Of a stretch of DNA of 64,000 nucleotides, positions 2,393-62,470 are shown in pieces (position 1 is the first letter of the stretch; every line of letters begins with the position of its first letter). The translations under genes and the position numbers were made by a program. This stretch comes from Candidatus Kapaibacterium sp. GTDB lineage: Bacteria; Bacteroidota; Ignavibacteria; Kapaibacteriales; UBA2268. The notes under the pieces are model-generated. The model ran no database searches and had not been told where the DNA came from. It saw only the letters and a list, made by a program, of their open reading frames with translations. The stretch is taken from positions 3,674 through 67,673 of the forward strand of contig JAPLFL010000101.1 of the NCBI GenBank assembly GCA_026390695.1, read 5' to 3'.

Positions 2393-2519
2393 AGCATTGA
2401 TGATATTTTCTTTAATCTCGATATTAATTCCTTAAGATTTTGTAATTTTGTAAATGTAAGTTTAATCAGTGATAACGAGATAAACTCAGGAATATTTTAT
2501 TAAAATTATGAAAAAATAA

Positions 2520-3263
2520 ATGCCAGTAAAAGTAATTACAATAGATTTTTGGAATACCTTGTTCGATTCGAGTGCCGGAACCGAACGGAACACATATCGC
2601 CGCCAGTCATTGGTTAAGGAAATAAAGAAACTGAATGCCGAATTAAGTGAAATTGAGTTTAATAGTGCAATGGAGGCATCATGGGCTTTTTTTAATGATA
2701 ATTGGCTCAATCACAGCCGTACACCTGAGCCAAGCGAAACGGTGAAATTTTTTATGGACTTTCTACATTTAGATTTCACAGCCGAGCAATTTGATAAAGT
2801 TGTTTGGAATTTTGCAGAATCTGTGCTGGTTTTTCCACCTAAATTAATTGATGGAGTTCCTCAAGCACTCGAAAGTTTATCTTCAAAATTTAAATTGGGA
2901 TTGATTTCGGATACTGGATTTTCTCCCGGAACTGTATTGCGTGAGCTGATGAAAAGAACTAATATTTATCAATATTTTTCAGCATTTAGTTTTTCTGATG
3001 AAACCAAAGTGTCCAAACCGCATCCGAAAGCCTATCTTACAGTTTTAAATGAGTTGGAATGCAATCCTGAAGATGCTGTCCATATTGGCGACATTGCTCA
3101 GACTGATATTAAAGGAGCAAAAAATTTATCAATGAGAGCTATTCGGTTCATTGGCGACCAAACTTCAATGGTTCTAAAAAATACTGACATACAAATAGAA
3201 GCTGACTGGGAAGCAGAATCCTGGCATGAAATAGTAAAAATTATTAACGAAATTACTAATTAA
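2520..3263 (+). CDS. HAD-superfamily hydrolase.
   Basis: Motif I-like ITIDFWNTLF; motif III lysine (SKPHPK); motif IV HIGDxxxxD; length 247 aa. Confidence 0.65.
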   Translation: MPVKVITIDFWNTLFDSSAGTERNTYRRQSLVKEIKKLNAELSEIEFNSAMEASWAFFNDNWLNHSRTPEPSETVKFFMDFLHLDFTAEQFDKVVWNFAESVLVFPPKLIDGVPQALESLSSKFKLGLISDTGFSPGTVLRELMKRTNIYQYFSAFSFSDETKVSKPHPKAYLTVLNELECNPEDAVHIGDIAQTDIKGAKNLSMRAIRFIGDQTSMVLKNTDIQIEADWEAESWHEIVKIINEITN

Positions 3264-3326
3264 AATATTTTAATATTTTATTGAATAATTCTCCGATTTC
3301 ATTTGCGAAATGATATTTATCATTAA

Positions 3327-3459
3327 TGAGACTATCTCAAAAGCCTCATTTCTGTCATTCCTGCGAATGCAGGAATCCCCTAAAGTGGCACTGGCAGGAG
3401 ATTTCTGCATACGCAGGAATGACATTTTTGTTAAATATGTAGCTTTTGAGACAGCCTCA
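3327..3459. repeat. Single copy of the MITE-like palindromic element, with TIR-like ends TCTCAAAAGCCTCA / TTTTGAGACAGCCTCA.
   Basis: Same core as at 1253-1430; followed by a T-run at 3463-3470. Confidence 0.75.
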
Positions 3460-3682
3460 TTAGTTTTTTTAAAAATTATTTCGTAATTTGTAAATTGGTG
3501 TTTTATTTTTTTAAGTAATTTTGGATTTACATTTGATTAATTCTGATTTCATAGTAAAAGTTGCTCTGGAAGCTGTGTACGAATCAATTGGTAAAATTCA
3601 TTATTCGATTGTTCATAGGCAAGCAAAGAAAATCTATGAAGTAGATGACAAACAAATAACTTATATCGTTTCCTACTTTAAG

Positions 3683-3920
3683 GCTGTCATTTGTGCGTAT
3701 GCAGGAATCCCCAATTGCGCCATGGAATGGGATTCCCGCATTCGAGTTTGTGTGAAAACTGCAATTTCTTGTCATTCCTGCGAATGCAGGAATCCCGCTA
3801 AAGTGGCACTGGAAGGAGATTCCTGCATACGCAGGAATGACATTCTATTGGAATTTTCGTGTTTTCACACAGTCTCATGCGCGGGAATGACAATAATTCC
3901 TAATTCTTTAAGGAAATGAT
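3683..3920. repeat. Composite copy of the palindromic element. Its flanks (CGTTTCCTACTTTAAGGCTGTCATT ... TTAAGGAAATGATAT) are shared with the copy at 20921-21255.
   Basis: Direct comparison of 3663-3700 with 20921-20960, and of 3885-3920 with 21212-21255. Confidence 0.7.
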
Positions 3921-3962
3921 ATTATATATAAAATTGAGATTTAACAATTAAGCATATACATT

Positions 3963-6900
3963 ATGAAAAAACTATTCCTGTCAAAAAAAGTAATTCTTCT
4001 TGCATTGATTTTATCCGGTATTACTTTTATAGTTACGATCGGCTCAACTTATATAAATTATATCACAGCCTCTGATACTGTTCTGAAGGCATTGTTAGAT
4101 GATGCGGAAAGTGATAAAAACTTTGTTGAAACACTTTACAATAAAGGTTTCTCAAGAGACTCAATATTATCAGTTTTAAATCAAGTTCATAAATCCGTAA
4201 GAATGATAGGTAGTACAGGGGAATTAGTTATAGGTGAATTGTATAAGGATTCAATAAATTTTATAGTGAGAAAGACCATAAATGGAGATGGTGAAAAAAT
4301 TAGTGTTAGCCTTAAATCCAATAAAATAGCAGGTCCGATGCGCTCGGCAATGTCAAAAAAAACTGGGAATTATCAGGGCTTGGATTATCGAGGAAGTAAA
4401 GTCTTTGCAGGTTACACATATTTTGCACCATTTCAATGGGGAATTGTTTCCAAAATAAGTGTAGAAGAAGTACGGGAGCCATTTATTTATTCCCTTTTAT
4501 ATTGCTTTATACCAGCCATTTTATTAACTTTTTTTGGGTCTTTACTTTTTATAAAAGTAACAAATCCGATGATAACGGCTATCAGAAAAAGTGAGGAAAA
4601 TTTATCGATTACTTTGAATTCAATTGGTGACGGCGTTATCTCTACCGATGAGCATGGCATGGTTGTACAATTAAATCCTGTAGCCGAGAAACTCTGTGGT
4701 TGGAAAATTGATGAAGCTCGTGGAAAACCTCTTAACGAAGTTTTTAAAATTATTAATGCTGAGACAAGGTTGATAGTTGAAAATCCTGTTAAAAAAGTGA
4801 TTGAAAATGGACAGATTGTTGGGCTCGCCAATCATACAGTTTTGATTTCCAGGGACGGGAAGGAATATCAAATAGCTGATAGTGCAGCTCCTATAAAGGA
4901 TGTAGCAGGAAGAATCAATGGTGTTGTCATGGTATTTTCCGATGTAACGGAAAGATATGCAGCAGAATACGCTTTACGCAAAAGTCAAGAGCAATTAAAT
5001 ATTATTTTTCAAGAATCACCTGTCGCATCTGTACTGGTTGGAATGGATAAAAAATTTATAAAATGTAATTCTGCATTCAGCAATTTTTTGGGATATTCGG
5101 AAATTGAAATAATTGGAAGGACTATTGAGGAAGTAACTTATTCTGAAGATGTTGAAATCGCAATGCCTGAAATGAAGCTGTTAGTGGAAGGGAAAATAAA
5201 AACAGTAAAAGCAGAGAAACGTTATGTGAGAAAGAATGGAGAACTTATATGGGGTGAGATAAAAATCTCCCTGGTACATGATGAGAACAATAAACCCTTA
5301 TATTTCTTACCGATTATTCATAATATTTCTGATAGGAAAAAAGCAGAACTTGAATTGAAAGAAAGTGAAGCTACTTTCCGTGAATTATGGAACGCAACAA
5401 TTGAGGGAATTACTATACACGACAGAGGTATTATTCTTAAAGCAAATGATGCGATGTGCCGGATGTTTGGCTATGAACCTGAGAATGTAATAGGAATGTC
5501 CTTGCTAAAATTTGCAGCACCTGAAGTGCACGATTTTCTTCGTAAAACTATGGCAACAGATAGGGATGGACATTTTGAATTACCATGTATAAAAGCAGAT
5601 GGCACCAAAATGATTGTCGAAACATTTTCAAAGATGATCAGATATAAAGGTAAAGACCTTAGAATGGCTGCCAACCGTGATATAACCGAACGGAAGAAGG
5701 CAGAAGCAGCTGTTTATAAAGCTAAGTTGGAATGGGAGGCAATTTTTCACGGGATATCTCATCCGACGATAATTTTAGGGCCGGACAATAATATTCTTGA
5801 AATCAATGAAGCTACCGAAAGAATGCTTGGCAAGAATATATCCGAACTTAAGGATCTCAAATGTTGGGAGATTTTTCATGGTAATGCCCATTCCGAGCGA
5901 CCTTGCGGATGCCCGTTCACGAAATTACTTGATAGCAATTCGAGCCAAACTGAGGAGATGGAAATTGAAGCCGTAAGTGGTACTTTTATAGTTTCCTGCA
6001 CTCCAATTTTCGATGCAGGAGGAAAATTAGAAAAAGTTGTTCATATTGCCACTGAAATAACAGAAAGAAAAAAGGCAGAGAATGCTTTGAAAGCAAGTGA
6101 ACTAAGGCTCCAACTAATTCTTGAGAATATGCCGATCCTCCTTAATGCTTTCGATGATAACGGTAATATAATCGTCTGGAATAAAGCGTGTGAAGAAGCA
6201 ACAGGGTATAGTGCAGTTGAAATAATTAATAATCCACAGGCTTTAGAACTTTTATATCCGGATATTGATTATAGAAATAATGTGATGAAGGATATTGCTG
6301 ATCCCAAATATTCAGATAATGTTTATGATTTAGTGAAGAAAAATAAAGAAATTCGGACAATAGAATGGTTCGATATTTATAAAAAGATCCGTATTCCGGG
6401 TTGGCCATCTTGGGGACTTGGTCAGGATATCACTGATAGATTGCGTGCCGAAGAATTATTAAGACAAAGCGAGGAGAAGTTTAGAAATATTTATGAAAAT
6501 TCTCAGGAAGGAATCTTCCAAACGAGGGCTGATGGCTCTTATATTTCTGTTAATACAGCTTTAGCTAAGATGTATGGTTATGATTCTTCCGAGGAACTTA
6601 TGGATAATAGAGCCAACATAGCATTTGATTCTTATTTTAACCCAGAAGACCGTAATCAATTTCTTAAAATTATGGAGGAAAAAGGATTAATTCGGGGTTT
6701 TGAATATCAGGTTAAGCATCGCGATGGCCATAATATGTGGTTTTATGAAGATGCAAAAGCTATTAAGGATGAAAATGGGAACCTTGAATATTTTGAAGGA
6801 TTTGTTGTTGATATTACTGAGAAAAAGTTAGCGGAAGAGGCACTGAAGGCAAGTTATGCTGATTTAAGAAGAGCTGAACAAGTCTCTAAAATAGGTTATT

Positions 6901-13929: not shown

Positions 13930-14200
13930 ACTTCAATAAAGCCTGTCATTCCTGCGGAAGCAGGAATCCCCAAAATAAACGAACCTGTCATTTCTGCAAA
14001 TGCAGGAATCCCCAAAATAAACAAGCCTGTCATTCCTGCGGATGCAGGAATCCCCATAATGAATAAACCTGACCATGCAACATAAACATGAAGCCAAAGA
14101 GAGAATCAAAAATGGGATTCCTGTATGCACAGGAATGACAGAAAAAATAGTGCTGTCATTCCTGCAGATGCAGGAATCCCCAAAATGAATAAACCTGACC
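13930..14200. repeat. Cluster of at least 5 copies of the GTCATTCCTGC(G/A)GA(A/T)GCAGGAATCCCC palindrome, including three 42-bp tandem units.
   Basis: Direct reading: CCTGTCATTCCTGCGGAAGCAGGAATCCCCAAAATAAACGAA repeats three times, followed by two inverted copies. Confidence 0.75.
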
Positions 14201-14377: not shown

Positions 14378-14526
14378 GCGCAGCGGAATTGTATTTAAGG
14401 ACAGCGGATTAGTATTTAAGGACAGCGGATATGTATTTAAGGACAGCGGATTTGTATTTAAGCGCAGCGGATTTGTATTTAAGGACAGCGGATTAATAAT
14501 TTAATGGAGCGGATTTGTATTAAAAG
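14378..14526. repeat. Tandem direct repeat, 7 x 21 bp, unit GACAGCGGATTTGTATTTAAG. It lies ~160 bp upstream of the GAF-PAS kinase gene.
   Basis: Seven consecutive near-identical 21-mers were read directly from the sequence. Confidence 0.85.
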
Positions 14527-20920: not shown

Positions 20921-21255
20921 GATCGTTTCCTACTTGAAGGCTGTCATTCCTGCGTATGAGCCTGTGTGAAAACATCAATTTCTTGTCATTCCTGCGCATG
21001 CAGGAATCCCCTGATTGGCACTGGAAGGAGATTCCCGCATTCGAGCCTGTGTGAAAACATCAATTTCTTGTCATTCCTGCGCATGCAGGAATCCCCTGAT
21101 TGGCACTGGAAGGAGATTCCCGCATTCGAGCCTTGTGAAAACATCAATTTCTTGTCATTCCTGCGCATGCAGGAATCCCCTGATTGGCACTGGAAGGAGA
21201 TTCCCGCAGTGCGGGAATGACAAGAATTCCTAATTCATTAAGGAAATGATATAAA
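20921..21255. repeat. Three tandem ~85-bp copies of the palindromic element, with a composite flank ending TTAAGGAAATGATAT.
   Basis: Unit starts at 20962, 21047 and 21131; the core is GTCATTCCTGCGCATGCAGGAATCCCC. Confidence 0.8.
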
Positions 21256-25855: not shown

Positions 25856-26782
25856 TTATTCTAATCCAAGAGATACCGGAAGTTCATTTGACCACTCACC
25901 GCTACCATTATCATTGGTTCCACGGCAACGATATAGCCAATCTCCAATACCAGGATTATGCATAATTAATAATTCAGCACCTGAATAAGCATTCGTCCAA
26001 TCGGGAACTGGTCCTGATGGATTTAAAGATTTATATTCTAACTCGTAAGCATTTGCTGAAGCGGCTGGATTCCAACTTGCAGTGAATGTGGCATTATCAT
26101 AAGTTAATCCCTGTACCTTTGAAGGCAGATCAGGAGTTGTTCGATAAATTATATAATCATTATACTTGGCTTCATCAACATTTTCCCAGATTAATTTACC
26201 TATTTTGCAATATTGAGTAATGTATGAAAACAGTTCATTACCTTTCTGTGTGCGTTCGACAGTTTTTGAATCACGTAATTGCTTTTTAGTATTGATGTCA
26301 ATTATTTTATCTTCAATATCTCCTGTATTTGAGGTCAAATCAACTAATAAAGTTGTCGTTAAACCAATTGCTGAGAGGTCAGCAAAATAAGCAGATGCCT
26401 GAGCAGCAACATTACGGGCTGTTAGAATAAAATTTCCATCTGAGAAATTATGAAATCCCTTAATTCTAAGACTTGAATACTTCCCAGAATTAGTTCCATA
26501 CTTCTGTTCAAAGAACCCAGAAACAGTTTGAATCTCTGTTGTTAAAGTATCTCGTAAAGCCTTCTTCTCGGAAGCTTCATCCTTAATCTCGCCAATATAA
26601 ACTTCATCCGGTGGAACAGCATCAAAGGCGGTTTTCAATACTGATAAAGCTGTTATATCTCCAGAATCAACACCACGAGTTGCAAATTGGGTTGAATCTC
26701 TTGTCATATTAGCAATAATTTTTGCTGCTAATATACTTAATTCTGCATTAGACATCGAATAATCTCGATTAATCTCTTTCAT
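25856..26782 (-). CDS. Hypothetical protein with a C-terminal fibronectin-III-like domain. It is paralogous to 61146-62111 and 48464-49072.
   Basis: Shares KGNELFSYITQYCKIGKLIWEN with the 61146 gene (KGNELYALVTKYCNIGKMIWEN); FN3-like tail (SWNPAASANAYELEYKS...). The true start is possibly the internal MSNAEL at 26755. Confidence 0.6.
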   Translation of the reverse strand: MKEINRDYSMSNAELSILAAKIIANMTRDSTQFATRGVDSGDITALSVLKTAFDAVPPDEVYIGEIKDEASEKKALRDTLTTEIQTVSGFFEQKYGTNSGKYSSLRIKGFHNFSDGNFILTARNVAAQASAYFADLSAIGLTTTLLVDLTSNTGDIEDKIIDINTKKQLRDSKTVERTQKGNELFSYITQYCKIGKLIWENVDEAKYNDYIIYRTTPDLPSKVQGLTYDNATFTASWNPAASANAYELEYKSLNPSGPVPDWTNAYSGAELLIMHNPGIGDWLYRCRGTNDNGSGEWSNELPVSLGLE

Positions 26783-26860
26783 TATAGTACCCTTCTCTAA
26801 TATATTGGAAAATAAAACAATTACTGCATCTATTATATAAATTTATATTTACTTTAAAGC

Positions 26861-27007
26861 GGTTTAATGATCCCTTAAAACAGTTTATTGATCTCTTGAA
26901 ACAGTTTATTGATCTCTTGAAACAGTTTATTGATCTCTTGAAACAGTTTATTGATCTCTTGAAACAGTTTATTGATCTCTTGAAACAGTTTATTGATCTC
27001 TTAAACG
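26861..27007. repeat. Tandem direct repeat, 7 x 21 bp (CAGTTTATTGATCTCTTGAAA), ~80 bp upstream of the 25856-26782 gene.
   Basis: Read directly: six perfect copies plus one degenerate copy. Confidence 0.9.
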
Positions 27008-27270
27008 CATAATAGATTAATATATTCTCTTCGATTAATAATAAACTTAACATAATATATTAATTATTGATCTAATAAATATTTTATTATATTGATTCTT
27101 TGCTGCCATTGTTCTTGTAGATTATTTTATTTAATTAGTAATATCAAAAATTTATATAATAAATAATTTCATACATCCAGCAATTACAAATATAATAAAA
27201 AATAATGGTATTATCAAGTATAATTTTAAAATAATTTAATATATTTGTGGGAAAATAGAATAATATTCAC

Positions 27271-27321
27271 TTCGACTTCGCTCAGTGAACTGTATAGCTC
27301 ATTGAGCGCAGTCGTAATGAG
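27271..27321. repeat. Conserved ~50-nt hairpin element (TCGACTTCGCTCA...TGAGCGCAGTCG). A second copy is at 62581-62634.
   Basis: A 13-bp inverted repeat with a ~18-nt loop, with 80-85% identity to the 62581 copy. Confidence 0.65.
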
Positions 27322-27410
27322 ATTAATATAATTATATTTCACTTTATATTTTATATAAAAAGTGTTCAGAATGACTGAAAATGAGGTTAGATTGTAAGGA
27401 AAATAAGAAA

Positions 27411-27655
27411 ATCCCCATTGAATCCCATTTAGGAAAGGGGGAAACTTGGAAAATCCCCCTTAGTCCCCCTTTTTCAAAGGGGGAAACTTGGAAAAACTAC
27501 CTTAATCCCCCTTTTATAAAGGGGGAAACTTGGAAAATCCCTCTTAATCCCCATTTAGGAAAGGGGGAAACTTGGAAAATCCCCCTTAATCCCCCTTTTT
27601 CAAAGGGGGAAACTTGGAAAATCTCTCTTGATTCCCATTTAGGAAAGGGGGATTG
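27411..27655. repeat. About 6 tandem 41-42-bp units, each encoding a CCCCC-UUUUCAAA-GGGGG hairpin plus AACTTGGAAAA. The array is at the 3' end of the Nramp-related gene.
   Basis: Read directly; GC-clamp palindromes stand out in the AT-rich context. Confidence 0.85.
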
Positions 27656-28956
27656 AATAGGAGAATTGCTGTTAATCCTATTAGAATTGTTATTGTAGTC
27701 CAACCTACAATGTTGTTAAATGGCTTATTTATGTATTTGCCCATTATTTCTTTGTCGTTGACAAGTAGTATCATGCAGACTAATACTACGGGTAGGAGCA
27801 CTCCGTTTAGCACTTGTGACCAAATACTGATTAAAATTAATGGGGCATTGGGGATAAGGATTATCAGTGCTGAAATAATTAGTATTGCGGTATATAAAAA
27901 GTAGAATTGTGGTGCTTCGTTCATCTTTTTATCAATTCCGGCTTCAAATCCAAATGCTTCGCAGACGTAGAAAGCTGTTGCAAGTGGTAGAATAGTGGCG
28001 GAAAAGATGGATGCGACTAATAATCCGAATGCAAATACATATTTGGCGAAGGCTCCGGCAAGTGGTTCTAATGCAATTGCTGCGTCACTTGCTTCATTTA
28101 TGACAACATGGTGTGGAAATAGTGTTGATCCGCATGCAACTATAATGAAAAATGCCACAACTACTGTTGCAATGCATCCAACAACTATATCCATTATTGT
28201 ATATTTGTAATCTTCTATCTTTAATTTCTTTTCAATGACCGCAGATTGCATGTAAAATTGCATCCAAGGTGCAATAGTTGTGCCAATTATGCCTATAACG
28301 ATGGTAATATATGAAAAACTCATTTCAACTTTGGGATGAATGATGGCAGTTCCTATTTCTCCCCAGTCAGGTTTGCCCATAATTGCTGATATTACGTAAG
28401 AAAGGAGGAAAACTGAGAAAATAAGGAATATTCTTTCTGCTATCCGGTATGTACCTTTGACTACAAGGAACCAAACTGCTGCTGCAACGATGGGTACAGC
28501 TATGTATTTGCTTACTCCGAATACTTGCATAGCGCCCGCAACTCCAGCAAATTCCGTAGTTGTGTTTCCAATGTCTGCAATTAGTAATCCAACGAATATA
28601 AAGAAGGTTACTTTGACTCCTGAATTTTCCCGAATGAGGTCAGCTAATCCTTTCCCGGTTACAATTCCCATTCGGGCGTTCATTTCTTGTATTACAAGGA
28701 GTGCAATGAATGATGGAATTAGTGTCCAGAGTAGCGCATAGCCGTATTTAGCACCTGCAACGGAGTAGGTTGTGATTCCGCCGGCGTCATTATCGACTGA
28801 ACCGGTAATAATACCTGGTCCGAGGATTGCCAGAAAGAAAATAATGTTTCGCCAGATTGATTTTCTTCTTAATTTAAACATATAAATCCTCTCATTTCTT
28901 ATTTTAATTGTGTAGGATTGGCGATAATGGGAAATCCCTCCAAGCCCCTTTTTCAA
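27586..28956 (-). CDS. Nramp/SLC11-family transporter with a non-canonical metal site (Nramp-related, possibly an Mg2+/hard-cation transporter).
   Basis: 11-12 TM helices with the Nramp consensus region GPGIITGSVDNDAGG (TM1) and GTTIAPWMQF (TM6). The canonical DPGN Asn is replaced by Gly and the canonical MPH Met by Ala. Confidence 0.75.
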   Translation of the reverse strand: MKKGLGGISHYRQSYTIKIRNERIYMFKLRRKSIWRNIIFFLAILGPGIITGSVDNDAGGITTYSVAGAKYGYALLWTLIPSFIALLVIQEMNARMGIVTGKGLADLIRENSGVKVTFFIFVGLLIADIGNTTTEFAGVAGAMQVFGVSKYIAVPIVAAAVWFLVVKGTYRIAERIFLIFSVFLLSYVISAIMGKPDWGEIGTAIIHPKVEMSFSYITIVIGIIGTTIAPWMQFYMQSAVIEKKLKIEDYKYTIMDIVVGCIATVVVAFFIIVACGSTLFPHHVVINEASDAAIALEPLAGAFAKYVFAFGLLVASIFSATILPLATAFYVCEAFGFEAGIDKKMNEAPQFYFLYTAILIISALIILIPNAPLILISIWSQVLNGVLLPVVLVCMILLVNDKEIMGKYINKPFNNIVGWTTITILIGLTAILLFNPPFLNGNQERFSKFPPLKKGD

Positions 28957-29152
28957 AGGGGGAGATTATATTGGATATATTATAGCTACAATTAGTTAAG
29001 AAGGAATATTTCTTCATCCCCCCTTTGAAAAAGGGGGTTATGGGGAATTTCCAATTCTTCATTCTTTTGGAGAAATAGGTTAGGGTGATTTTCCAATTCT
29101 TCATTCTTTTGGAGAAATAGGTTATGGGGATTTTCCAATTCTTCATTCTACT
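28925..29152. repeat. Two CCCCCTTT-loop-AAAGGGGG hairpins followed by 2.5 tandem 42-bp units (TTCCAATTCTTCATTCTTTTGGAGAAATAGGTTATGGGGATT), between the MgtE_N/CBS gene and the Nramp-related gene.
   Basis: Direct reading. Confidence 0.8.
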
Positions 29153-29157
29153 ACTTT

Positions 29158-30408
29158 TTATGCTTTACGGCGGCGATTTTTCATTAAATTAAATACAACA
29201 TCGTCGATAATAACTATTCCAACCATTTTTTCTTCGGCGTCAACGACTGGCACAGCAAGTAGATTGTATTTAGATATAATTTCTCCTAATAAATCTATTT
29301 TGTCAGTGTCGTAAACTTTGGTTACATTGCGGTTCATTATAGATTTAAGTTGTGACATAGGATGAGAAATTATCAAATCTCTTAGTGAAACTGTTGCAAT
29401 TAGATTTTCATTTCTGTTTAATATATATAAATAGTAGATAGTATCGGATTCGGGGCGTAAAAGTCGTAGTTCATTGATTGTTTGTTCGATTGTCATTTCT
29501 TCCTCGAAGGAAATAAAGTCCGTAGCCATAAGCGAACCGACTGAATTATCGGGATATTCCATTAATTCACGAACTTCGGTGCTTGCTTGAGATTCCATCT
29601 CGCTTAAAATTTCTTCTGCTTTGTCTTCTTCCATTTCGTCAAGGATGTCAGCAACTTCGTCAGCGGGCATTTTTTCAAGTAAATCTGCAGCTTTAGATAT
29701 GTGAAGAGATTCAATTAAGTCCACCTGAGCGTCAGTTTCCATTTCCTCAAGCACATCAGCGGCTTTTTCTTCGTCCAGAGATGAGAAAAATGCAACTTGT
29801 GAGTTTCTGTCTAAGTCTTCTATAATATCGGCGATGTCCGAAGGATGCAGAGTTGATATTTTTTCCTGCGATTTGGATAAAATAAGTCCTCCGCGCTGGA
29901 AATCAATGGTAGCAACGTCGTCCCATAGGATTAATTTGCTGGATAACGAGACTCCAACGGGTTTAAGCAGCATTTTCATAGTCTTAGCAACAGATAAACG
30001 TCGCAATAATCCTTCTGTCCCGACGTCAACAGCAACTACAAACATGCCATCGGATAGATTAGCGAGCCTAAGATCATTCACACGCTCTAATTTTTTGCCG
30101 TCCATATCGACAATTTGCTTATCCATGACGTGTTTAGCAAGAAAATAGGTGTGTTCAGGGAGAATAATCATCTCAGCAATATGTTTGCAGACGACAGCAT
30201 AGTGCCCGTTAGTTTTAGTAACGGTAAATTCGTTAAAATCAATAGGAATAGCTCGTCTTCCGAGTTTTACCTTCAAGGCAATAACTTTAGGACGAATGAA
30301 AGAAAGATCGACAACGACATCTTGTAATTTGCCAATGACTTCTCCATTATCCGAAAGAACGCTCGATCCGAGAATTCTACTTAAATACAAAGTTGTAAAA
30401 ACAGCCAT
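29158..30408 (-). CDS. Soluble PRC-barrel / MgtE-N-domain / tandem-CBS protein (the cytoplasmic Mg2+-sensing module of MgtE), with no transmembrane domain.
   Basis: Acidic MgtE_N helical region (DLLEKMPADEVADILDEMEEDKAEEIL), CBS pair (LMATDFISF..., IMNRNVTKV...), and the ORF ends without hydrophobic helices. The start was chosen at the MAVF Met, which has a GGAGG 7 nt upstream. Confidence 0.7.
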   Translation of the reverse strand: MAVFTTLYLSRILGSSVLSDNGEVIGKLQDVVVDLSFIRPKVIALKVKLGRRAIPIDFNEFTVTKTNGHYAVVCKHIAEMIILPEHTYFLAKHVMDKQIVDMDGKKLERVNDLRLANLSDGMFVVAVDVGTEGLLRRLSVAKTMKMLLKPVGVSLSSKLILWDDVATIDFQRGGLILSKSQEKISTLHPSDIADIIEDLDRNSQVAFFSSLDEEKAADVLEEMETDAQVDLIESLHISKAADLLEKMPADEVADILDEMEEDKAEEILSEMESQASTEVRELMEYPDNSVGSLMATDFISFEEEMTIEQTINELRLLRPESDTIYYLYILNRNENLIATVSLRDLIISHPMSQLKSIMNRNVTKVYDTDKIDLLGEIISKYNLLAVPVVDAEEKMVGIVIIDDVVFNLMKNRRRKA

Positions 30409-30465
30409 AATATTGCCCTCCATTTTACGAACAGGGCAATAACAGCGAGGTTTGTGCCCTACTCG
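30409..30465 (-). promoter_or_regulatory. RBS-sequestering hairpin with an alternative upstream pairing partner in the 5' leader of the MgtE_N/CBS gene.
   Basis: In the mRNA, UAUUGCCCU (30441-30433) pairs either with AGGGCAAUA overlapping the SD (30419-30411) or with the upstream AGGGCA (~30459-30454). Confidence 0.45.
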
Positions 30466-30722
30466 TGATTATTCAGATTCGTTAAACCGCCAGGGTCGTC
30501 ATCCATATCACATCAAATAATTTATTTCAAAACACAATTAAAAAACACATACAAAATTACAACAATTTTGTAAAATAAATACCATAAATAGCAAGAAAAA
30601 ATAAATTATTTTCTAAAAATTAGTTGGTATATTCTATGATGAACTTTAATTTTAAATATATTTATAAAATAAGCAAAATAATTGCACGTCACTTATCTTT
30701 TATCATTTAATAATGTAATATA

Positions 30723-31286
30723 ATGCAAGAAATACTTCAAAATAACGAAACGCTCAACTTTGAGAAAGTTTGGCTGATGTTTCAAGAGACTGATCGTAGA
30801 ATGAAAGAGACTGATCGCCAGATGAAAGAGACTGATCGGAGATTGAAAAATCTAATGTCGAAAACCGACGGAATGGAAAAAAGATGGGGAAAGTTCGTTG
30901 AAGCATTAGTTGATGGAGCTTTGGTGAGGTTATTCAGAGAAATTGGAATTCAAGTTAACGGAACTTCCCAAAGGACTTATCGTTACTATGAGAATAAAAA
31001 ATATGAATTTGATTTGATTGCAAAAAATGGTGATGACCTTGTTATAGTTGAAGTTAAAACAACAATGGATGTAAATGATGTGAAACATTTTATTAATAAA
31101 ATAAAGAAATTTAAGTTAGTATTCAGCGAATATTCCAACAATAACATATTTGGAGCCGTTGCTTACATAAATCTAAATGGTGATTCAGACATTTTTGCAG
31201 AAAGACATGGCTTATATTTGATAAAAGCCACTGGAGAAAGTGCAAAATTAGTTAATAATGAAGGATTTAAACCAAGGAATTGGTGA
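30723..31286 (+). CDS. PD-(D/E)xK nuclease-fold protein (DUF3782-like) with an N-terminal ETDRRMK tandem heptad.
   Basis: YEFDLIA...DLVIVEVKT is a restriction-endonuclease-like D...(D/E)xK core; the N-terminal KETDRQMKETDRRLK repeat. Confidence 0.45.
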   Translation: MQEILQNNETLNFEKVWLMFQETDRRMKETDRQMKETDRRLKNLMSKTDGMEKRWGKFVEALVDGALVRLFREIGIQVNGTSQRTYRYYENKKYEFDLIAKNGDDLVIVEVKTTMDVNDVKHFINKIKKFKLVFSEYSNNNIFGAVAYINLNGDSDIFAERHGLYLIKATGESAKLVNNEGFKPRNW

Positions 31287-40364: not shown

Positions 40365-40454
40365 AAATATATTTTTGAAGTCTATTAATTTATTTACAAT
40401 ACATATAAATTATCATCGTCATCATCTCCGCAATTGACATATTTATTAATGTTG

Positions 40455-40620
40455 CCGAAATTCATGCAAAAACATGAATGCGGGGGAACCACTACCGGGG
40501 CGAATTCTCATAGTTCAGAGAAAGGATACTTCCAAATCCGAGCCCGTCAGCTAACCTCGTAGGCTAATGGAAGAGCATTGGACAGACAATTACCACTGCC
40601 CTTGCTGCTGTGGTTTTTTT
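40455..40620 (+). ncRNA. Candidate ydaO-yuaA (c-di-AMP) riboswitch with an intrinsic terminator, in the 5' leader of the KimA-like gene.
   Basis: Ordered conserved-looking blocks GGGGGAACC, GGGGCGAAUUC and CCCGUCAGCUAACCUCGUAGGC, with nested pairings CUUCCA/UGGAAG and AGCC/GGCU. The terminator is AACCAC-loop-GUGGUU plus U7 at 40592-40620, and AACCAC also occurs at 40486, allowing anti-terminator competition. Family assignment is from memory of the ydaO consensus. Confidence 0.5.
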
Positions 40621-40659: not shown

Positions 40660-42642
40660 ATGAGTTTCTACAATTCAAATGGTGATGTATCATTCATCAA
40701 GAAATTTAAACAAGTTTTATTCGGATCTCCAAGAAATGTTAATGATTCGGGGTTATTCCACAAAATAGCACTGATCCCGCTTTTAGCTTGGGTCGGTCTT
40801 GGATCCGATGGTTTATCATCTTCAGCTTATGGCCCTGAAGAAATATTCAGGAGTATTCAAGGTCATACTTATTTAGCGTTATTTCTCATTTTAGCTGTTG
40901 CCTTTACAATTTTCATCATTTCTTATGCCTATACCAGGATAATTGAGCATTTCCCTCATGGTGGTGGTGGTTATATTGTTGCCACGCACATGTTGGGAGA
41001 AAAAGCAGGTGTAGTCTCTGGCTCGGCTCTTATTGTGGATTATATTTTAACGATTACTGTTTCGATAACATCTTGCGTGGATGCCCTATTTAGTAATTTG
41101 CCAATCCATTATCAGAGTTATAAAGTGATGACTTCCACGGTTCTAATTGTTGTACTTATAGTATTAAATATCAGGGGAGTTAAAGAGTCAATCACAGTTT
41201 TAACCCCAATATTTATTGTTTTTGTATTAACACATATTTTGCTTTTGGGCTATGGAATATTCAGTCATCTTGGCGAAATACAGCCCGTAATTTCCAATGC
41301 AAATCAGAACCTGACAAAAGACCTGAGTAGTATAGGCTTTTTTGGAATATTTTTTATGGTAATCAGAGCGTATTCTCTTGGTGGTGGCACCTATACTGGC
41401 ATTGAAGCAGTATCCAATGGTTTGCAAATTATGCGTGAACCAAAAGTAAAAACCGGCAAGAGAACAATGCTTTATATGGCTTCATCTCTTGCAGTAGCTG
41501 CTGCTGGATTATTACTTTGCTATTTATTGGTAGAAGTCAAGTTAGTACCCGGAAAAACTCTTAATACAGTTTTAGCAGAAACTTTATTTGGAAATTGGAG
41601 ATATGGAAATATAATTACAATAATTACAATTTTTTCCGAAGGTGCTTTACTATTTGTTGCTGCTCAAACAGGATTTATAGATGCACCGCGCGTAATGGCC
41701 AATATGGCTGTAGATTCATGGTTACCGCACAGATTTGCAGCATTTTCAGAAAGGTTAACAATGAGAAATGGAATCGTTCTCATAGGATTATCTGCTCTTC
41801 TGATTCTTTGGTACACGAATGGTTCAATCGGCGCATTAGTTGTTATGTATTCAATTAATGTCTTTCTTACTTTTACACTTTCAGAGTTTGGAATGTCTCG
41901 ATTTTATTTCAGAAGAAGAAAAACTGATAATCAATGGAAAAAACATATTGTAATACATTTGATTGGATTAGTATTATGTGCTACGATTTTGCTCATTACC
42001 GTTTCTGAAAAATTTGCTGAAGGAGGCTGGATAACACTACTTATAACTGGTATTCTTATTATTGTAAGTTATAGAATCAAGAAACATTATTTAAGGGTAA
42101 GAGGTGCTATGGTGCAGCTGGAAGACAATATAACCGAAATATATGCAAGCAGCCAGTCTAAAGTTTCAGCAATAATAAATAGAAAAGAACAGACTGTAAT
42201 TCAGCTTGTCGGATCGTATAATGGTTTTGGCATCCACACTCTTTTATCGGTCATCAAGACTTTCCCCGAACTTTATAAAAATATAGTATTCGTCTCTGTA
42301 GCAGTAATTGATCAGGGAATGTTCAAGGGTGAAAATTCAATTGAAGGTTTGAAAGAATCAGTTATTGATTCCTTGAAAAGTTATGTGAATTTGGCCGTGA
42401 AGCTCGGCTTTAATGCTGAATATTATATGGCTGTCGGAACTGAAGTTAATGAAACTGCTGTTGAGTTAATTGATAGTATTAAAAAAGAATATCCTAATTC
42501 AACCGTATTTAGCGGGCGACTTGCCTTTCAAAAGGAAAAATTCTATCATAGATTGTTACATAACGAAACTGCTTATGCTGTTCAAAGAAAACTCCAATTC
42601 AATGGAATTACTAACGTGATTTTACCAATAAGGGTGAATTGA
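40660..42642 (+). CDS. kimA: APC-superfamily K+ importer of the KimA (YdaO) type, with a C-terminal cytoplasmic domain.
   Basis: About 12 TM helices in an APC fold plus a ~200-aa soluble tail; GGAGG RBS; sits behind a ydaO-type leader. Confidence 0.6.
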   Translation: MSFYNSNGDVSFIKKFKQVLFGSPRNVNDSGLFHKIALIPLLAWVGLGSDGLSSSAYGPEEIFRSIQGHTYLALFLILAVAFTIFIISYAYTRIIEHFPHGGGGYIVATHMLGEKAGVVSGSALIVDYILTITVSITSCVDALFSNLPIHYQSYKVMTSTVLIVVLIVLNIRGVKESITVLTPIFIVFVLTHILLLGYGIFSHLGEIQPVISNANQNLTKDLSSIGFFGIFFMVIRAYSLGGGTYTGIEAVSNGLQIMREPKVKTGKRTMLYMASSLAVAAAGLLLCYLLVEVKLVPGKTLNTVLAETLFGNWRYGNIITIITIFSEGALLFVAAQTGFIDAPRVMANMAVDSWLPHRFAAFSERLTMRNGIVLIGLSALLILWYTNGSIGALVVMYSINVFLTFTLSEFGMSRFYFRRRKTDNQWKKHIVIHLIGLVLCATILLITVSEKFAEGGWITLLITGILIIVSYRIKKHYLRVRGAMVQLEDNITEIYASSQSKVSAIINRKEQTVIQLVGSYNGFGIHTLLSVIKTFPELYKNIVFVSVAVIDQGMFKGENSIEGLKESVIDSLKSYVNLAVKLGFNAEYYMAVGTEVNETAVELIDSIKKEYPNSTVFSGRLAFQKEKFYHRLLHNETAYAVQRKLQFNGITNVILPIRVN

Positions 42643-48209: not shown

Positions 48210-48395
48210 TGAATATTGGTTTATAAAAATAGAATGCTGGATCTTAAAAATAGAACATTGGATTTTAAAATTGAGATATTGGATTTTAAAAATGAAACAT
48301 TGGATTTTAAAAATGAAACATTGGATTTTAAAAATAGAATGCTGGATTTTAAAAATGGTACATTGGATTTTAAAAATAGAATCTATAAATTTGTA
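48210..48395. repeat. Tandem direct repeat, about 8 x 21 bp (TGAAACATTGGATTTTAAAAA), ~70 bp upstream of the 48464-49072 gene.
   Basis: Read directly: seven good copies and one degenerate copy. Confidence 0.9.
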
Positions 48396-62111: not shown

Positions 62112-62321
62112 TAAATAAACAAAACTAATTAAAATTTATGATAAATCTATCATTAGCTATTATTATATTCATATTAATAAAAATTAAATATATTATATAA
62201 TTTATTAATCAATCAAATAATGAACATAAAGAAAATATGTTACAATTTAAACTAACAATAATCAAATTTAATTAGTCAAAACATCTTTTTAAGAATAAAA
62301 AGCATTAATATTGGATTTATA

Positions 62322-62470
62322 AGCATTAATGTCAGATTAAAAACTATTGATGTTGGTTTTATAAGCATTAATGTCAGATTAAAAACCATTGATATTGGAT
62401 TTATAAACATTAATGTCAGTTTTAAAAGTACTAATATTAATTTAAAAAACACTGATGTTAATATAAAAAT
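62322..62470. repeat. Tandem direct repeat, about 3.5 x 42 bp (equivalent to 7 x 21 bp half-units), upstream of the 61146-62111 gene.
   Basis: ATAAGCATTAATGTCAGATTAAAAACTATTGATGTTGGTTTT units were read directly. Confidence 0.85.

Follow-up and report, generated by a model that had tools for sequence, protein, structure and literature searches.

A putative NRMT-type importer operon with a soluble MgtE-like protein and a candidate leader-peptide switch in Candidatus Kapaibacterium

Here, we describe a candidate two-gene operon in a 64,000-nucleotide stretch of DNA from Candidatus Kapaibacterium sp. (the whole stretch is referred to as the window), which is AT-rich (~31-40% G+C). The genes, A and B, are both on the minus strand in head-to-tail order, at the positions given in an earlier reading of the same DNA (the original prediction). 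With moderate confidence, we propose that the operon combines an importer of divalent cations (Mg2+, and probably Mn2+ too) of the Nramp-related Mg2+ transporter (NRMT) type with a soluble homologue of the MgtE sensor, and that a leader of the leader-peptide type governs its expression. Gene pairs of this kind are known as mgtE-nramp operons. The operon in the window is a variant of them because a conserved leader mini-ORF (a short open reading frame, ORF) and a switch at the ribosome-binding site (RBS) of gene A replace the M-box riboswitch (ykoK, RF00380), which controls homologous operons in Bacillota and is absent from the window. The two genes are laid out as follows.

27586..28881, minus strand: gene B, 431 aa; true start ATG 28881 within the ORF 27586..28956
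29158..30408, minus strand: gene A, 416 aa; chosen start ATG 30408 within the ORF 29158..30423 (421 aa)
30208-30393, minus strand: PRC barrel of gene A
29545-29850, minus strand: MgtE_N domain of gene A
29185-29529, minus strand: CBS pair of gene A
Remainder of gene A, minus strand: a conserved region at about residues 85-185 without domain assignment, and a basic C-terminal helix, ...LMKNRRRKA

The start of gene A was chosen from its homologues, from a GGAGGG Shine-Dalgarno (SD) sequence at 30421-30416, 7 nt ahead of the ATG at 30408, and from the NCBI record: the product is 100% identical to a 416-aa protein from a metagenome-assembled genome (MAG) labelled Candidatus Kapabacteria. For gene B, alignments to relatives begin at the ATG at 28881 (MFKLRRKS...), which is preceded by a GAGAGGA box.

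Gene B resembles NRMT-type SLC11 transporters

Gene B matched the Pfam Nramp model (PF01566) at 1.9e-98 over profile positions 1-356 of 357, that is, over the whole protein, and scored 144.7 against the NCBIfam MntH model, below its cut-off of 430. The best match in the PDB was EleNRMT from Eggerthella lenta (7qia; E=2.8e-113, 382 bits, residues 11-409). DraNramp matched at 3.7e-28 (102 bits), and the canonical Nramps DraNramp, ScaDMT and EcoDMT ranged from 1e-28 to 1e-22. In transmembrane helix 1 (TM1), gene B reads D-N-D32-A-G-G35, with D32 and G35 aligned to EleNRMT D55 and G58; in TM6 it reads G-T201-T-I-A204-P-W-M, with T201 and A204 aligned to T224 and A227; and Q356 aligns with Q379 of EleNRMT helix 10. 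All five site residues are the same in gene B and EleNRMT. At the positions of D32, G35, T201 and A204, DraNramp has D56, N59, A227 and M230. The original prediction had read an Asn-to-Gly change in TM1 (DAGG) and a Met-to-Ala change in TM6 (IAPWM). Alignment to EleNRMT and DraNramp agrees: D32, G35 and A204 fall on EleNRMT D55, G58 and A227, and these residue calls are therefore correct. Its assignment of the gene to the Nramp-related Mg2+ transporters holds as well, with EleNRMT far ahead of DraNramp and the NRMT site signature exact. In EleNRMT, T224 is required for Mg2+ transport, and G58 is discussed in the same study (Ramanadane et al. 2022, eLife, PMC8806188). By sequence, gene B is an NRMT-type SLC11 divalent-cation transporter whose substrate is probably Mg2+, with Mn2+ probably carried too.

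EleNRMT carries Mn2+ besides Mg2+ (PMC8806188, PMC13060092), and the Acidobacterium capsulatum homologue, which likewise has no M-box, seemed to favour Mn2+ and apparently works mainly on that ion (Shin et al. 2014, PLoS Genet, PMC4072509). Both observations would suit a system for Mn2+ or mixed Mn2+/Mg2+ uptake rather than for Mg2+ homeostasis. We consider such a system unlikely: the site of gene B is that of EleNRMT including T201, at the position needed for Mg2+, and homologous operons lie under the same leader or an M-box, with the leader also found ahead of corA and mgtA genes, as described below.

The C-terminus sets gene B apart from the characterised NRMTs (EleNRMT and NrmT), since in gene B a repeat array has overwritten it. 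The median length of homologues is 414 aa, whereas gene B has 431 residues, of which the last ~20 are encoded by an array with a 42-bp unit. Some 410 residues of gene B are native, and its C-terminal tail NPPFLNGNQERFSKFPPLKKGD, encoded by the array (27586-27652), stands in for the native tail of ~5-9 residues of the homologues.

Gene A encodes a soluble MgtE-like protein with a PRC barrel

Within the 421-aa ORF of gene A, Pfam models identified a PRC domain (PF05239; residues 11-72, 9.3e-10, above the cut-off), MgtE_N (residues 192-293, 4e-28) and two CBS domains reaching residue 413. The best NCBIfam match was TIGR00400 (mgtE), yet it fell under the cut-off, and only positions 21-248 of the 450 in the profile were matched; the transmembrane part is absent. 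The protein stops 8 residues past the second CBS domain, as does the whole family. Gene A thus lacks the C-terminal five-helix membrane pore domain and is therefore not an MgtE channel, which bears out the earlier statement that it encodes only the cytoplasmic half of MgtE. An AlphaFold2 model built on 89 homologues (mean predicted local distance difference test score, pLDDT, 74.8) superposed on the MgtE cytosolic domains 2oux, 2yvy, 5x9g and 8gps with target TM-scores (template-modelling scores) of 0.82-0.91. In this model, the PRC barrel has a pLDDT of ~76-90 and residues 95-184 are modelled at low confidence. The original prediction had placed PRC-barrel-like domains, in the plural, ahead of MgtE_N. 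One barrel (residues 11-72) stands; a second is unsupported, on a profile-profile probability of 0.6% (hhalign, residues 1-82 against 83-185) and the low model confidence at residues 95-184. The region at about residues 85-185 is well conserved and has no profile similarity to residues 1-82.

To assign ligand residues (in the 416-aa numbering), we aligned gene A to T. thermophilus MgtE with HMMER and compared the alignment with the sites listed in PMC5882242 and PMC5529423 and with the invariant columns of the family. Gene A keeps the ligands of Mg4 (MgtE D91/D247, D250/D403 in gene A), Mg6 (D95, D254 in gene A) and Mg7 (E59, D218 in gene A), all of them invariant in the family. Most ATP contacts of MgtE (Y170, R187, D188 and N203) are also kept, as Y326, R343, D344 and N359. 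Gene A has in common with the MgtE cytosolic domain (T. thermophilus; 2yvy, 2yvx, 5x9g) the fold of the N domain and CBS pair, three sets of Mg2+ ligands and the Y, R, D and N of the ATP site. Unlike MgtE, it has no pore, it carries ~185 extra N-terminal residues (the PRC barrel and the unassigned region), and it ends in a basic helix (family consensus LLKxRRR) where MgtE has an acidic plug helix; the sites that it has lost are listed below, where the proposed role is weighed.

The best 120 database clusters of gene A homologues are nearly all 414-436 aa long (range 392-454) and share 55-66% identity across phyla. All contain MgtE_N and CBS domains, most have a detectable PRC barrel, and no further domain, such as the membrane part of MgtE, is annotated in any of these 120. 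The basic C-terminus is conserved in the 21 homologues aligned with gene A. A truncated pseudogene of a full-length mgtE could be expected to have TIGR00400 as its best, sub-cut-off NCBIfam match, as gene A does. The conserved family of ~416-aa proteins with a conserved C-terminus rules this out to a near certainty, and the 276-nt spacer downstream of gene A is made of repeats, with no transmembrane-domain remnant in it. Gene A is a genuine gene, as the original prediction had assumed.

The gene pair recurs across phyla and is a known class

A genome scan limited to one genome per species returned 79 loci with gene A homologues (46-65% identity) from Bacteroidota, Ignavibacteria, Bacillota, Spirochaetota, Verrucomicrobiota and others. 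Synteny was counted in the 76 loci with room downstream of the homologue. In 65 of these, an NRMT gene follows 16-206 nt downstream on the same strand, and nearly all of these neighbours are 67-78% identical to gene B (~50-61% in two cases). Two loci have the NRMT gene upstream and then two tandem gene A paralogues, and one has only an NRMT fragment. Co-occurrence of MgtE_N-CBS-only genes with Nramp-like genes, which the original prediction had seen in a single instance, is thus a recurrent arrangement. In the two loci of reversed order (L064 and L069, ~2500-6600), short tandem repeats (GTGAAAAG / CGTTACGC) lie between the NRMT gene and the first gene A paralogue.

The pair has been described under the name "mgtE-nramp operons", with the same two genes in the same order, an accessory gene that corresponds to the MgtE cytoplasmic domain only, and a proposed "cytoplasmic feedback regulation of transport" (Shin et al., PMC4072509). 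The central interpretation of the original prediction, an MgtE-like sensor acting in trans on the permease, is therefore an existing hypothesis, and the gene pair adds one more example to a class on record since 2014. In C. acetobutylicum, the characterised operons are under M-box riboswitch control (PMC4072509), whereas the operon in the window has a leader mini-ORF instead. Our analysis defines the accessory protein sharply, as a family of ~416 aa with three MgtE Mg2+ sites invariant and a PRC-barrel N-terminal half that goes unmentioned in the mgtE-nramp literature; a literature search found no later paper that tests a gene A-type accessory protein or mentions its PRC barrel. These features bear on a question more than 10 years old, namely whether a LeuT-fold carrier can be gated in trans by the sensor domain of a channel.

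Action of gene A in trans on gene B is a reasonable speculation. Gene A would close on Mg2+ (possibly also ATP) as the MgtE cytosolic domain does, and the closed protein would then inhibit the gene B permease from the cytoplasmic side. Contact between the two could be made by the parts that MgtE does not have: the PRC barrel, the region at about residues 85-185 and the basic C-terminal helix.

Some of the loci have other transporter-related genes beside the gene A homologue and no NRMT neighbour. In L009 the homologue stands ahead of a 648-aa APC-family permease, in L040 and L041 it stands ahead of a CDF exporter and then MntP, and in L025 it lies downstream of a TrkA gene. A scan of related loci with Rfam models (52 loci scanned) placed an M-box directly ahead of the gene A homologue in L041 (3761-3922) and a NiCo riboswitch between the homologue and the CDF gene in L040 (5384-5484).

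These neighbourhoods, together with loci that have no transporter nearby, raise the question of whether gene A, rather than being a Mg2+ gate for the NRMT, could work with various partners, either as a general sensor of the CBS type (for adenine nucleotides, energy charge or some other cation) or by chaperoning or buffering metal. Conservation of the four ATP-contact residues fits such a role, and Shin et al. (PMC4072509) offer a chaperone role or a response to Mn2+ as alternatives for the MgtE-like fragment. We regard this alternative as somewhat unlikely, since an NRMT gene adjoins 88% of gene A homologues and the interdomain Mg2+ ligands of sites Mg4, Mg6 and Mg7 are invariant. Moreover, in L041 the M-box precedes gene A alone, so the gene itself is under Mg2+ control without an NRMT, and in L040 the NiCo riboswitch separates the homologue from the CDF gene, so their adjacency may be incidental. 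Exchange of partners by gene A homologues is possible.

A conserved mini-ORF marks the leader of gene A

The leader upstream of gene A contains a mini-ORF and three segments that can pair in alternative ways.

30459..30506, minus strand: leader mini-ORF of 15 codons, read from the sequence as ATGGATGACGACCCTGGCGGTTTAACGAATCTGAATAATCACGAGTAG, encoding MDDDPGGLTNLNNHE followed by a stop codon
30454..30467, minus strand: segment 1, the SD-like anti-sequestor, CACGAGTAGGGCAC, which overlaps the mini-ORF stop codon
30426..30442, minus strand: segment 2, the anti-SD, TTATTGCCCTGTTCGTA, which pairs with segment 1 or segment 3
30410..30424, minus strand: segment 3, the ribosome-binding region of gene A, AATGGAGGGCAATAT, which holds the SD GGAGGG

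In the window, the mini-ORF reads ATG GAT GAC GAC CCT GGC GGT ... TAG (peptide MDDDPGG...). An ORF that begins M-D-x-[D/G]-P lies 93-141 nt ahead of the gene A start in 49 of the 79 genome loci, with the family consensus M-D-[D/E]-[G/D]-P, and a few more loci have the variants MEGDP, MEQDP, MDPYP or MDDLP. When leaders are compared across loci, the conserved block upstream of gene A begins sharply at the mini-ORF ATG; past codon 6, the peptides diverge in sequence and length (10-31 codons). Bacillota mini-ORFs have a GGAGG-type SD at the proper distance upstream, and those of Bacteroidota start ~20-30 nt past a TAnnTTTG box, the -7 element of Bacteroidota promoters. In codons 3, 4 and 5, the third position varies and the identities Asp, Gly/Asp and Pro are kept: codon 4 is any of the four Gly codons or GAC, and codon 5 any of the four Pro codons, evidence that is partial in a data set that was partly pattern-selected. 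The 3' end of the mini-ORF is also constrained. Near the end of the ORF, 20 leaders share the block CCTGATATAG. In 18 of them the stop falls inside the block, 7 at a TGA and 11 at a TAG; the other two, which have a variant block, stop just past it, and none is in the read-through frame.

No Rfam family was found in the 300 nt upstream of gene A: none there reached the gathering threshold in the scan of the window, and none was credible at E<=5 in 27000-31000. The M-box in particular (RF00380) was absent from the window at the gathering threshold and from 27000-31000 at E<=5. Weak Rfam matches in 27000-31000 were set aside as chance matches of miRNA and sRNA models to repeats. The peptide motif and the leader are not in Rfam 15 and were not found in the searchable literature, and the mini-ORF leader seems to be undescribed. 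On sequence grounds, it is of the leader-peptide type rather than an M-box.

In two further genomes, an Ignavibacteria MAG (L004, ~1350-1550) and a Bacteroidales MAG (L074, ~3800-4000), short tandem repeats fill the leader, with the mini-ORF either degenerate or missing. Repeats have thus invaded this leader in genomes beyond the window.

An untranslated or incidental mini-ORF is conceivable, in which case the leader would be a constitutive RBS hairpin, an RNA thermometer or an undescribed ligand-binding RNA, with the conserved AUGGAYNNNGRNCC acting as an RNA motif. Conservation is confined to the first 5-6 codons, and the 3' block CCTGATATAG is kept as nucleotides in two frames, so a constraint at the RNA level exists. 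We nonetheless hold this account to be improbable. Conservation starts exactly at the ATG, an SD is found at the right distance before the Bacillota mini-ORFs, and the third positions of codons 3-5 vary as the encoded residues stay. Termination is always at segment 1, even with frames that vary from locus to locus; we found no stable partner with which the conserved 5' block could pair; and the start of the mini-ORF fits experimentally defined ribosome-destabilising starts (PMC11282234, PMC8092293).

Predicted alternative pairings could hide or expose the ribosome-binding site of gene A

The minimum free energy (MFE) and centroid folds of the window leader correspond to two alternative pairings: segments 1 and 2 (-17.9 kcal/mol, z=-3.1) and the RBS hairpin of segments 2 and 3 (-14.7 kcal/mol, z=-2.0). 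We compared these pairings with shuffled controls in 72 non-identical leaders. The SD region of gene A pairs with an upstream pyrimidine-rich segment at a mean z of -2.6, with 85% of the leaders below -1.64; the starts of NRMT genes, used as a control, gave a mean z of -0.5 (Mann-Whitney p=1.6e-13 against the gene A RBS hairpin). The pairing of segments 1 and 2 has a mean z of -1.9 (53% below -1.64), and segment 1 begins a median of 2 nt ahead of the stop codon of the mini-ORF. When 48 hairpins were aligned with MAFFT, a 9-bp helix written by hand was 71.2% paired, compared with 66.0±1.1% in shuffled alignments (0/500 reach this value), and its covariation score was 0.294, compared with 0.224 (0/500). 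The helix also did better than all slid registers, pair counts included. The signal of this leader is in specific pairings rather than in overall stability. The original prediction had credited the operon with a leader switch of its own. A switch by alternative pairing is supported (mean z of -2.6 for segments 2 and 3 and -1.9 for segments 1 and 2); a riboswitch is not, with no Rfam match, and the leader is better described as a putative leader-peptide/RBS-hairpin attenuator.

The leader is linked to magnesium by its neighbours and by known leader peptides

Three independent lines tie the leader to magnesium: M-boxes in homologous operons, the same leader ahead of other Mg2+ importer genes, and the resemblance of the peptide start to known leader peptides. 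Among the 52 loci scanned with Rfam models, 16 have an M-box, which stands alone before gene A in 10 and is followed by a mini-ORF in six. These six are Bacillota loci (L006, L017, L018, L035, L047 and L068), in which the mini-ORF lies ~85-130 nt past the M-box; the mini-ORF follows the M-box there, so the two are devices in series and not variants of each other. The mini-ORF alone is found in the window, in the scanned Bacteroidota-type loci and in several other loci. The Bacillota arrangement, in which one putative Mg2+ sensor follows another, recalls the leader of Salmonella mgtA.

We also scanned metagenomes with a DNA pattern for the mini-ORF, ATGGACGANGGNCCTGCG. Of the 80 loci returned, most were chance matches in GC-rich coding sequence, and 20 have gene A 102-122 nt downstream. 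An NRMT gene comes next in 18 of these 20, and the other two contigs end too soon. The only other informative matches were two loci in which the same leader (MDEGPA...) and a short ORF resembling the N-terminus of gene A stand ahead of other Mg2+ transporter genes: corA in L100 (1084-2050; Pfam CorA 7.6e-25) and a Mg2+-ATPase gene in L141 (1344-4345; TIGR01524, 1282 bits). The remnant ORFs read STFYFKR and MTTLTKF, respectively, and rearrangement seems to have brought the leader to other Mg2+ importers.

Two enterobacterial leader peptides offer the closest parallels. Ribosomes drop off the EPDP motif of MgtL at low Mg2+, the mRNA refolds and mgtA is expressed (PMC11282234); the intrinsic destabilisation of ribosomes on MgtL is due to Chadani et al. 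2017, as described in PMC11282234. Like MgtL (MEPDPTPLP...), the mini-ORF is short, lies in the leader of a gene for a Mg2+ importer and has acidic residues and Pro in its first five codons, and we propose for it the same course of events, in which aborted translation gives an alternative mRNA fold and turns the transporter on at low Mg2+. The two have no demonstrable homology, and they differ in output, which is Rho-dependent transcription termination for MgtL and, by prediction, exposure of an RBS for the mini-ORF. MgtL is enterobacterial, whereas the mini-ORF is known by computation only, from the Bacteroidota/FCB group, Bacillota and Spirochaetota. MgtQ, of 8 codons (Asp2, Pro4, Glu5), lies between Salmonella mgtC and mgtB, where ribosome destabilisation frees the mgtB RBS (PMC8092293). 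Its logic and its output, the freed RBS of a Mg2+ transporter gene, are those proposed here for the mini-ORF; it differs in being intergenic within an operon, restricted to enterobacteria and unrelated in sequence, whereas the mini-ORF is at the 5' end of the transcript. The mini-ORF thus has the sequence features that define leaders of the MgtL/MgtQ type, being short, placed in a Mg2+ transporter leader and rich early on in acidic residues together with Pro. By computation only, it also has alternative mRNA pairings between which the position of the ribosome on the ORF would choose.

On this analogy, shortage of magnesium is probably the condition under which the mini-ORF leader turns the operon on. 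With ample Mg2+, ribosomes would read the mini-ORF to its stop codon, and segment 1 would be covered or melted by them; pairing of segments 2 and 3 would follow, the RBS of gene A would be hidden and the operon would be off. At low Mg2+, the acidic-plus-proline start would destabilise or stall the ribosome within the first five codons, as in MgtL and MgtQ. With the mini-ORF aborted, segments 1 and 2 would remain paired, the SD would stay free and gene A, and presumably gene B, would be translated, leaving the operon on.

Several findings weigh against the proposed operon model or parts of it. On the side of the leader, the formal covariation signal is modest (71% paired compared with 66% in shuffles), because the alignment is partly out of register. 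RNAalifold on MAFFT alignments gave no consensus for the whole leader or for the hairpin, because the 5' arms of the sequences do not line up, and the MFE of the whole leader is ordinary (z=0.23). Pairing of the 5' part of the mini-ORF (codons 3-7) with the segment past its stop codon is unsupported (mean z=-0.48), and a four-segment model was dropped on this account for the three-segment one. On the side of the proteins, gene A has lost the Mg5 ligands (MgtE D226/D250, N382/F406 in gene A), lacks the plug-helix sites Mg2 and Mg3, and has Leu in place of the adenine-stacking Phe of MgtE (F227). No NRMT gene is nearby in 8 of the 76 loci. In the one published test, co-expression of the A. capsulatum pair gave no better rescue, and C. 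acetobutylicum NrmT is functional without the MgtE-like fragment (both in PMC4072509). The spacer between the genes is long (276 nt) and filled with repeats, so co-translation or co-transcription is not assured. Finally, which way the switch works, how it responds to Mg2+ and whether gene A acts on gene B are matters of inference.

Only comparative computation and analogy support the reading of the leader as a leader-peptide switch. Extended beyond the window, this reading leads to a tentative proposal, to which we assign somewhat less than even weight: the M-D-[D/E]-[G/D]-P mini-ORF and the three-segment RBS switch may be an undescribed Mg2+ sensor that relies on destabilising the ribosome. 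It would be widespread, occurring in Bacteroidota, Kapabacteria/Ignavibacteria relatives, Bacillota and Spirochaetota, alone or after an M-box, and would have been recruited to NRMT, CorA and MgtA, three unrelated families of Mg2+ importers. If true, Mg2+ sensing by destabilisation of ribosomes on a nascent peptide would no longer be confined to two enterobacterial cases and would span several phyla and three families of transporters, and the MgtL/MgtQ principle would be general in bacteria and no enterobacterial peculiarity. The mini-ORF leader would also explain the regulation of many NRMT operons that have no M-box. The short, searchable motif could serve in annotating the Mg2+ regulons of Bacteroidota, a phylum with few known magnesium-responsive elements.

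Tandem repeats have invaded the surroundings of gene B

Gene B is flanked by repeats on both sides.

27407..27652, minus strand: tandem array 1, ~6 copies of the 42-bp unit TCCCCCTTTgaaaaAGGGGGATTAAGGGGGATTTTCCAAGTT, overlapping the 3' end of gene B
28928-28962 and 29019-29053, no strand assigned: arms of a 35-nt inverted repeat in the spacer between genes A and B, 83% complementary and 56 nt apart, each arm with a CCCCCTTT-N-AAAGGGGG hairpin
29036..29149, minus strand: tandem array 2 in the same spacer, 2.7 copies of a 42-bp unit, containing TTGGAAAATCCCC

Each unit of array 1 holds a CCCCCTTT...AAAGGGGG hairpin, and the TTGGAAAATCCCC of array 2 is the reverse complement of a motif in array 1; the hairpin-unit motifs are common to both sides of gene B, in inverted orientation. 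The inverted repeat (28928-29053) encloses an AT-rich stretch with TATAAT-like hexamers.

The original prediction had counted these hairpin arrays among the operon's own equipment. As dedicated parts, they could be phased protein-binding sites or a terminator or stabiliser for gene B. In favour of this are their position on both sides of gene B, together with the inverted repeat and with motifs shared in inverted orientation, and the spacer between A and B, which folds unusually well (z=-3.19). We think it quite improbable, and operon-specific parts were rejected as the default. Unrelated arrays with periods of 21, 42, 63 or 84/85 bp occur in at least six other places in the window (13942-14071, 14381-14521, 20958-21208, 26862-27006, 48211-48381 and 62292-62469), and the repeats are therefore a window-wide feature, a class of 21n-bp tandem repeats that happened to invade the operon. 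In addition, the distance between gene A and the NRMT gene is 16-206 nt in relatives, exceeded in every case by the 276 nt in the window, the array overwrites the end of gene B, and on the minus strand the hairpins lack the T tract that a terminator would have after them. Several of the arrays in the window were checked and are intergenic; their unit sequences are unrelated, and the two-helical-turn periodicity appears to be window-wide.

Other features of the window

Two repeats with a 21-bp unit lie close to the operon. At 26769-27053 (minus strand), an array of 7 copies of a 21-bp unit makes a spurious ORF with a repeated FKRSINC. At 30784-30848 (plus strand), 3 copies of a 21-bp repeat within a 187-aa gene (30723-31286), which has no NCBIfam match, encode a repeated KETDR(R/Q)M.

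Farther away, a c-di-AMP (ydaO-type) riboswitch at 40443-40580 (plus strand, 91.6 bits) lies upstream of a 660-aa gene (40660-42642, plus strand) with weak matches to amino-acid-permease and Kup potassium-uptake models. This suggests a KimA-like K+ importer, which together with the riboswitch would be a known arrangement.

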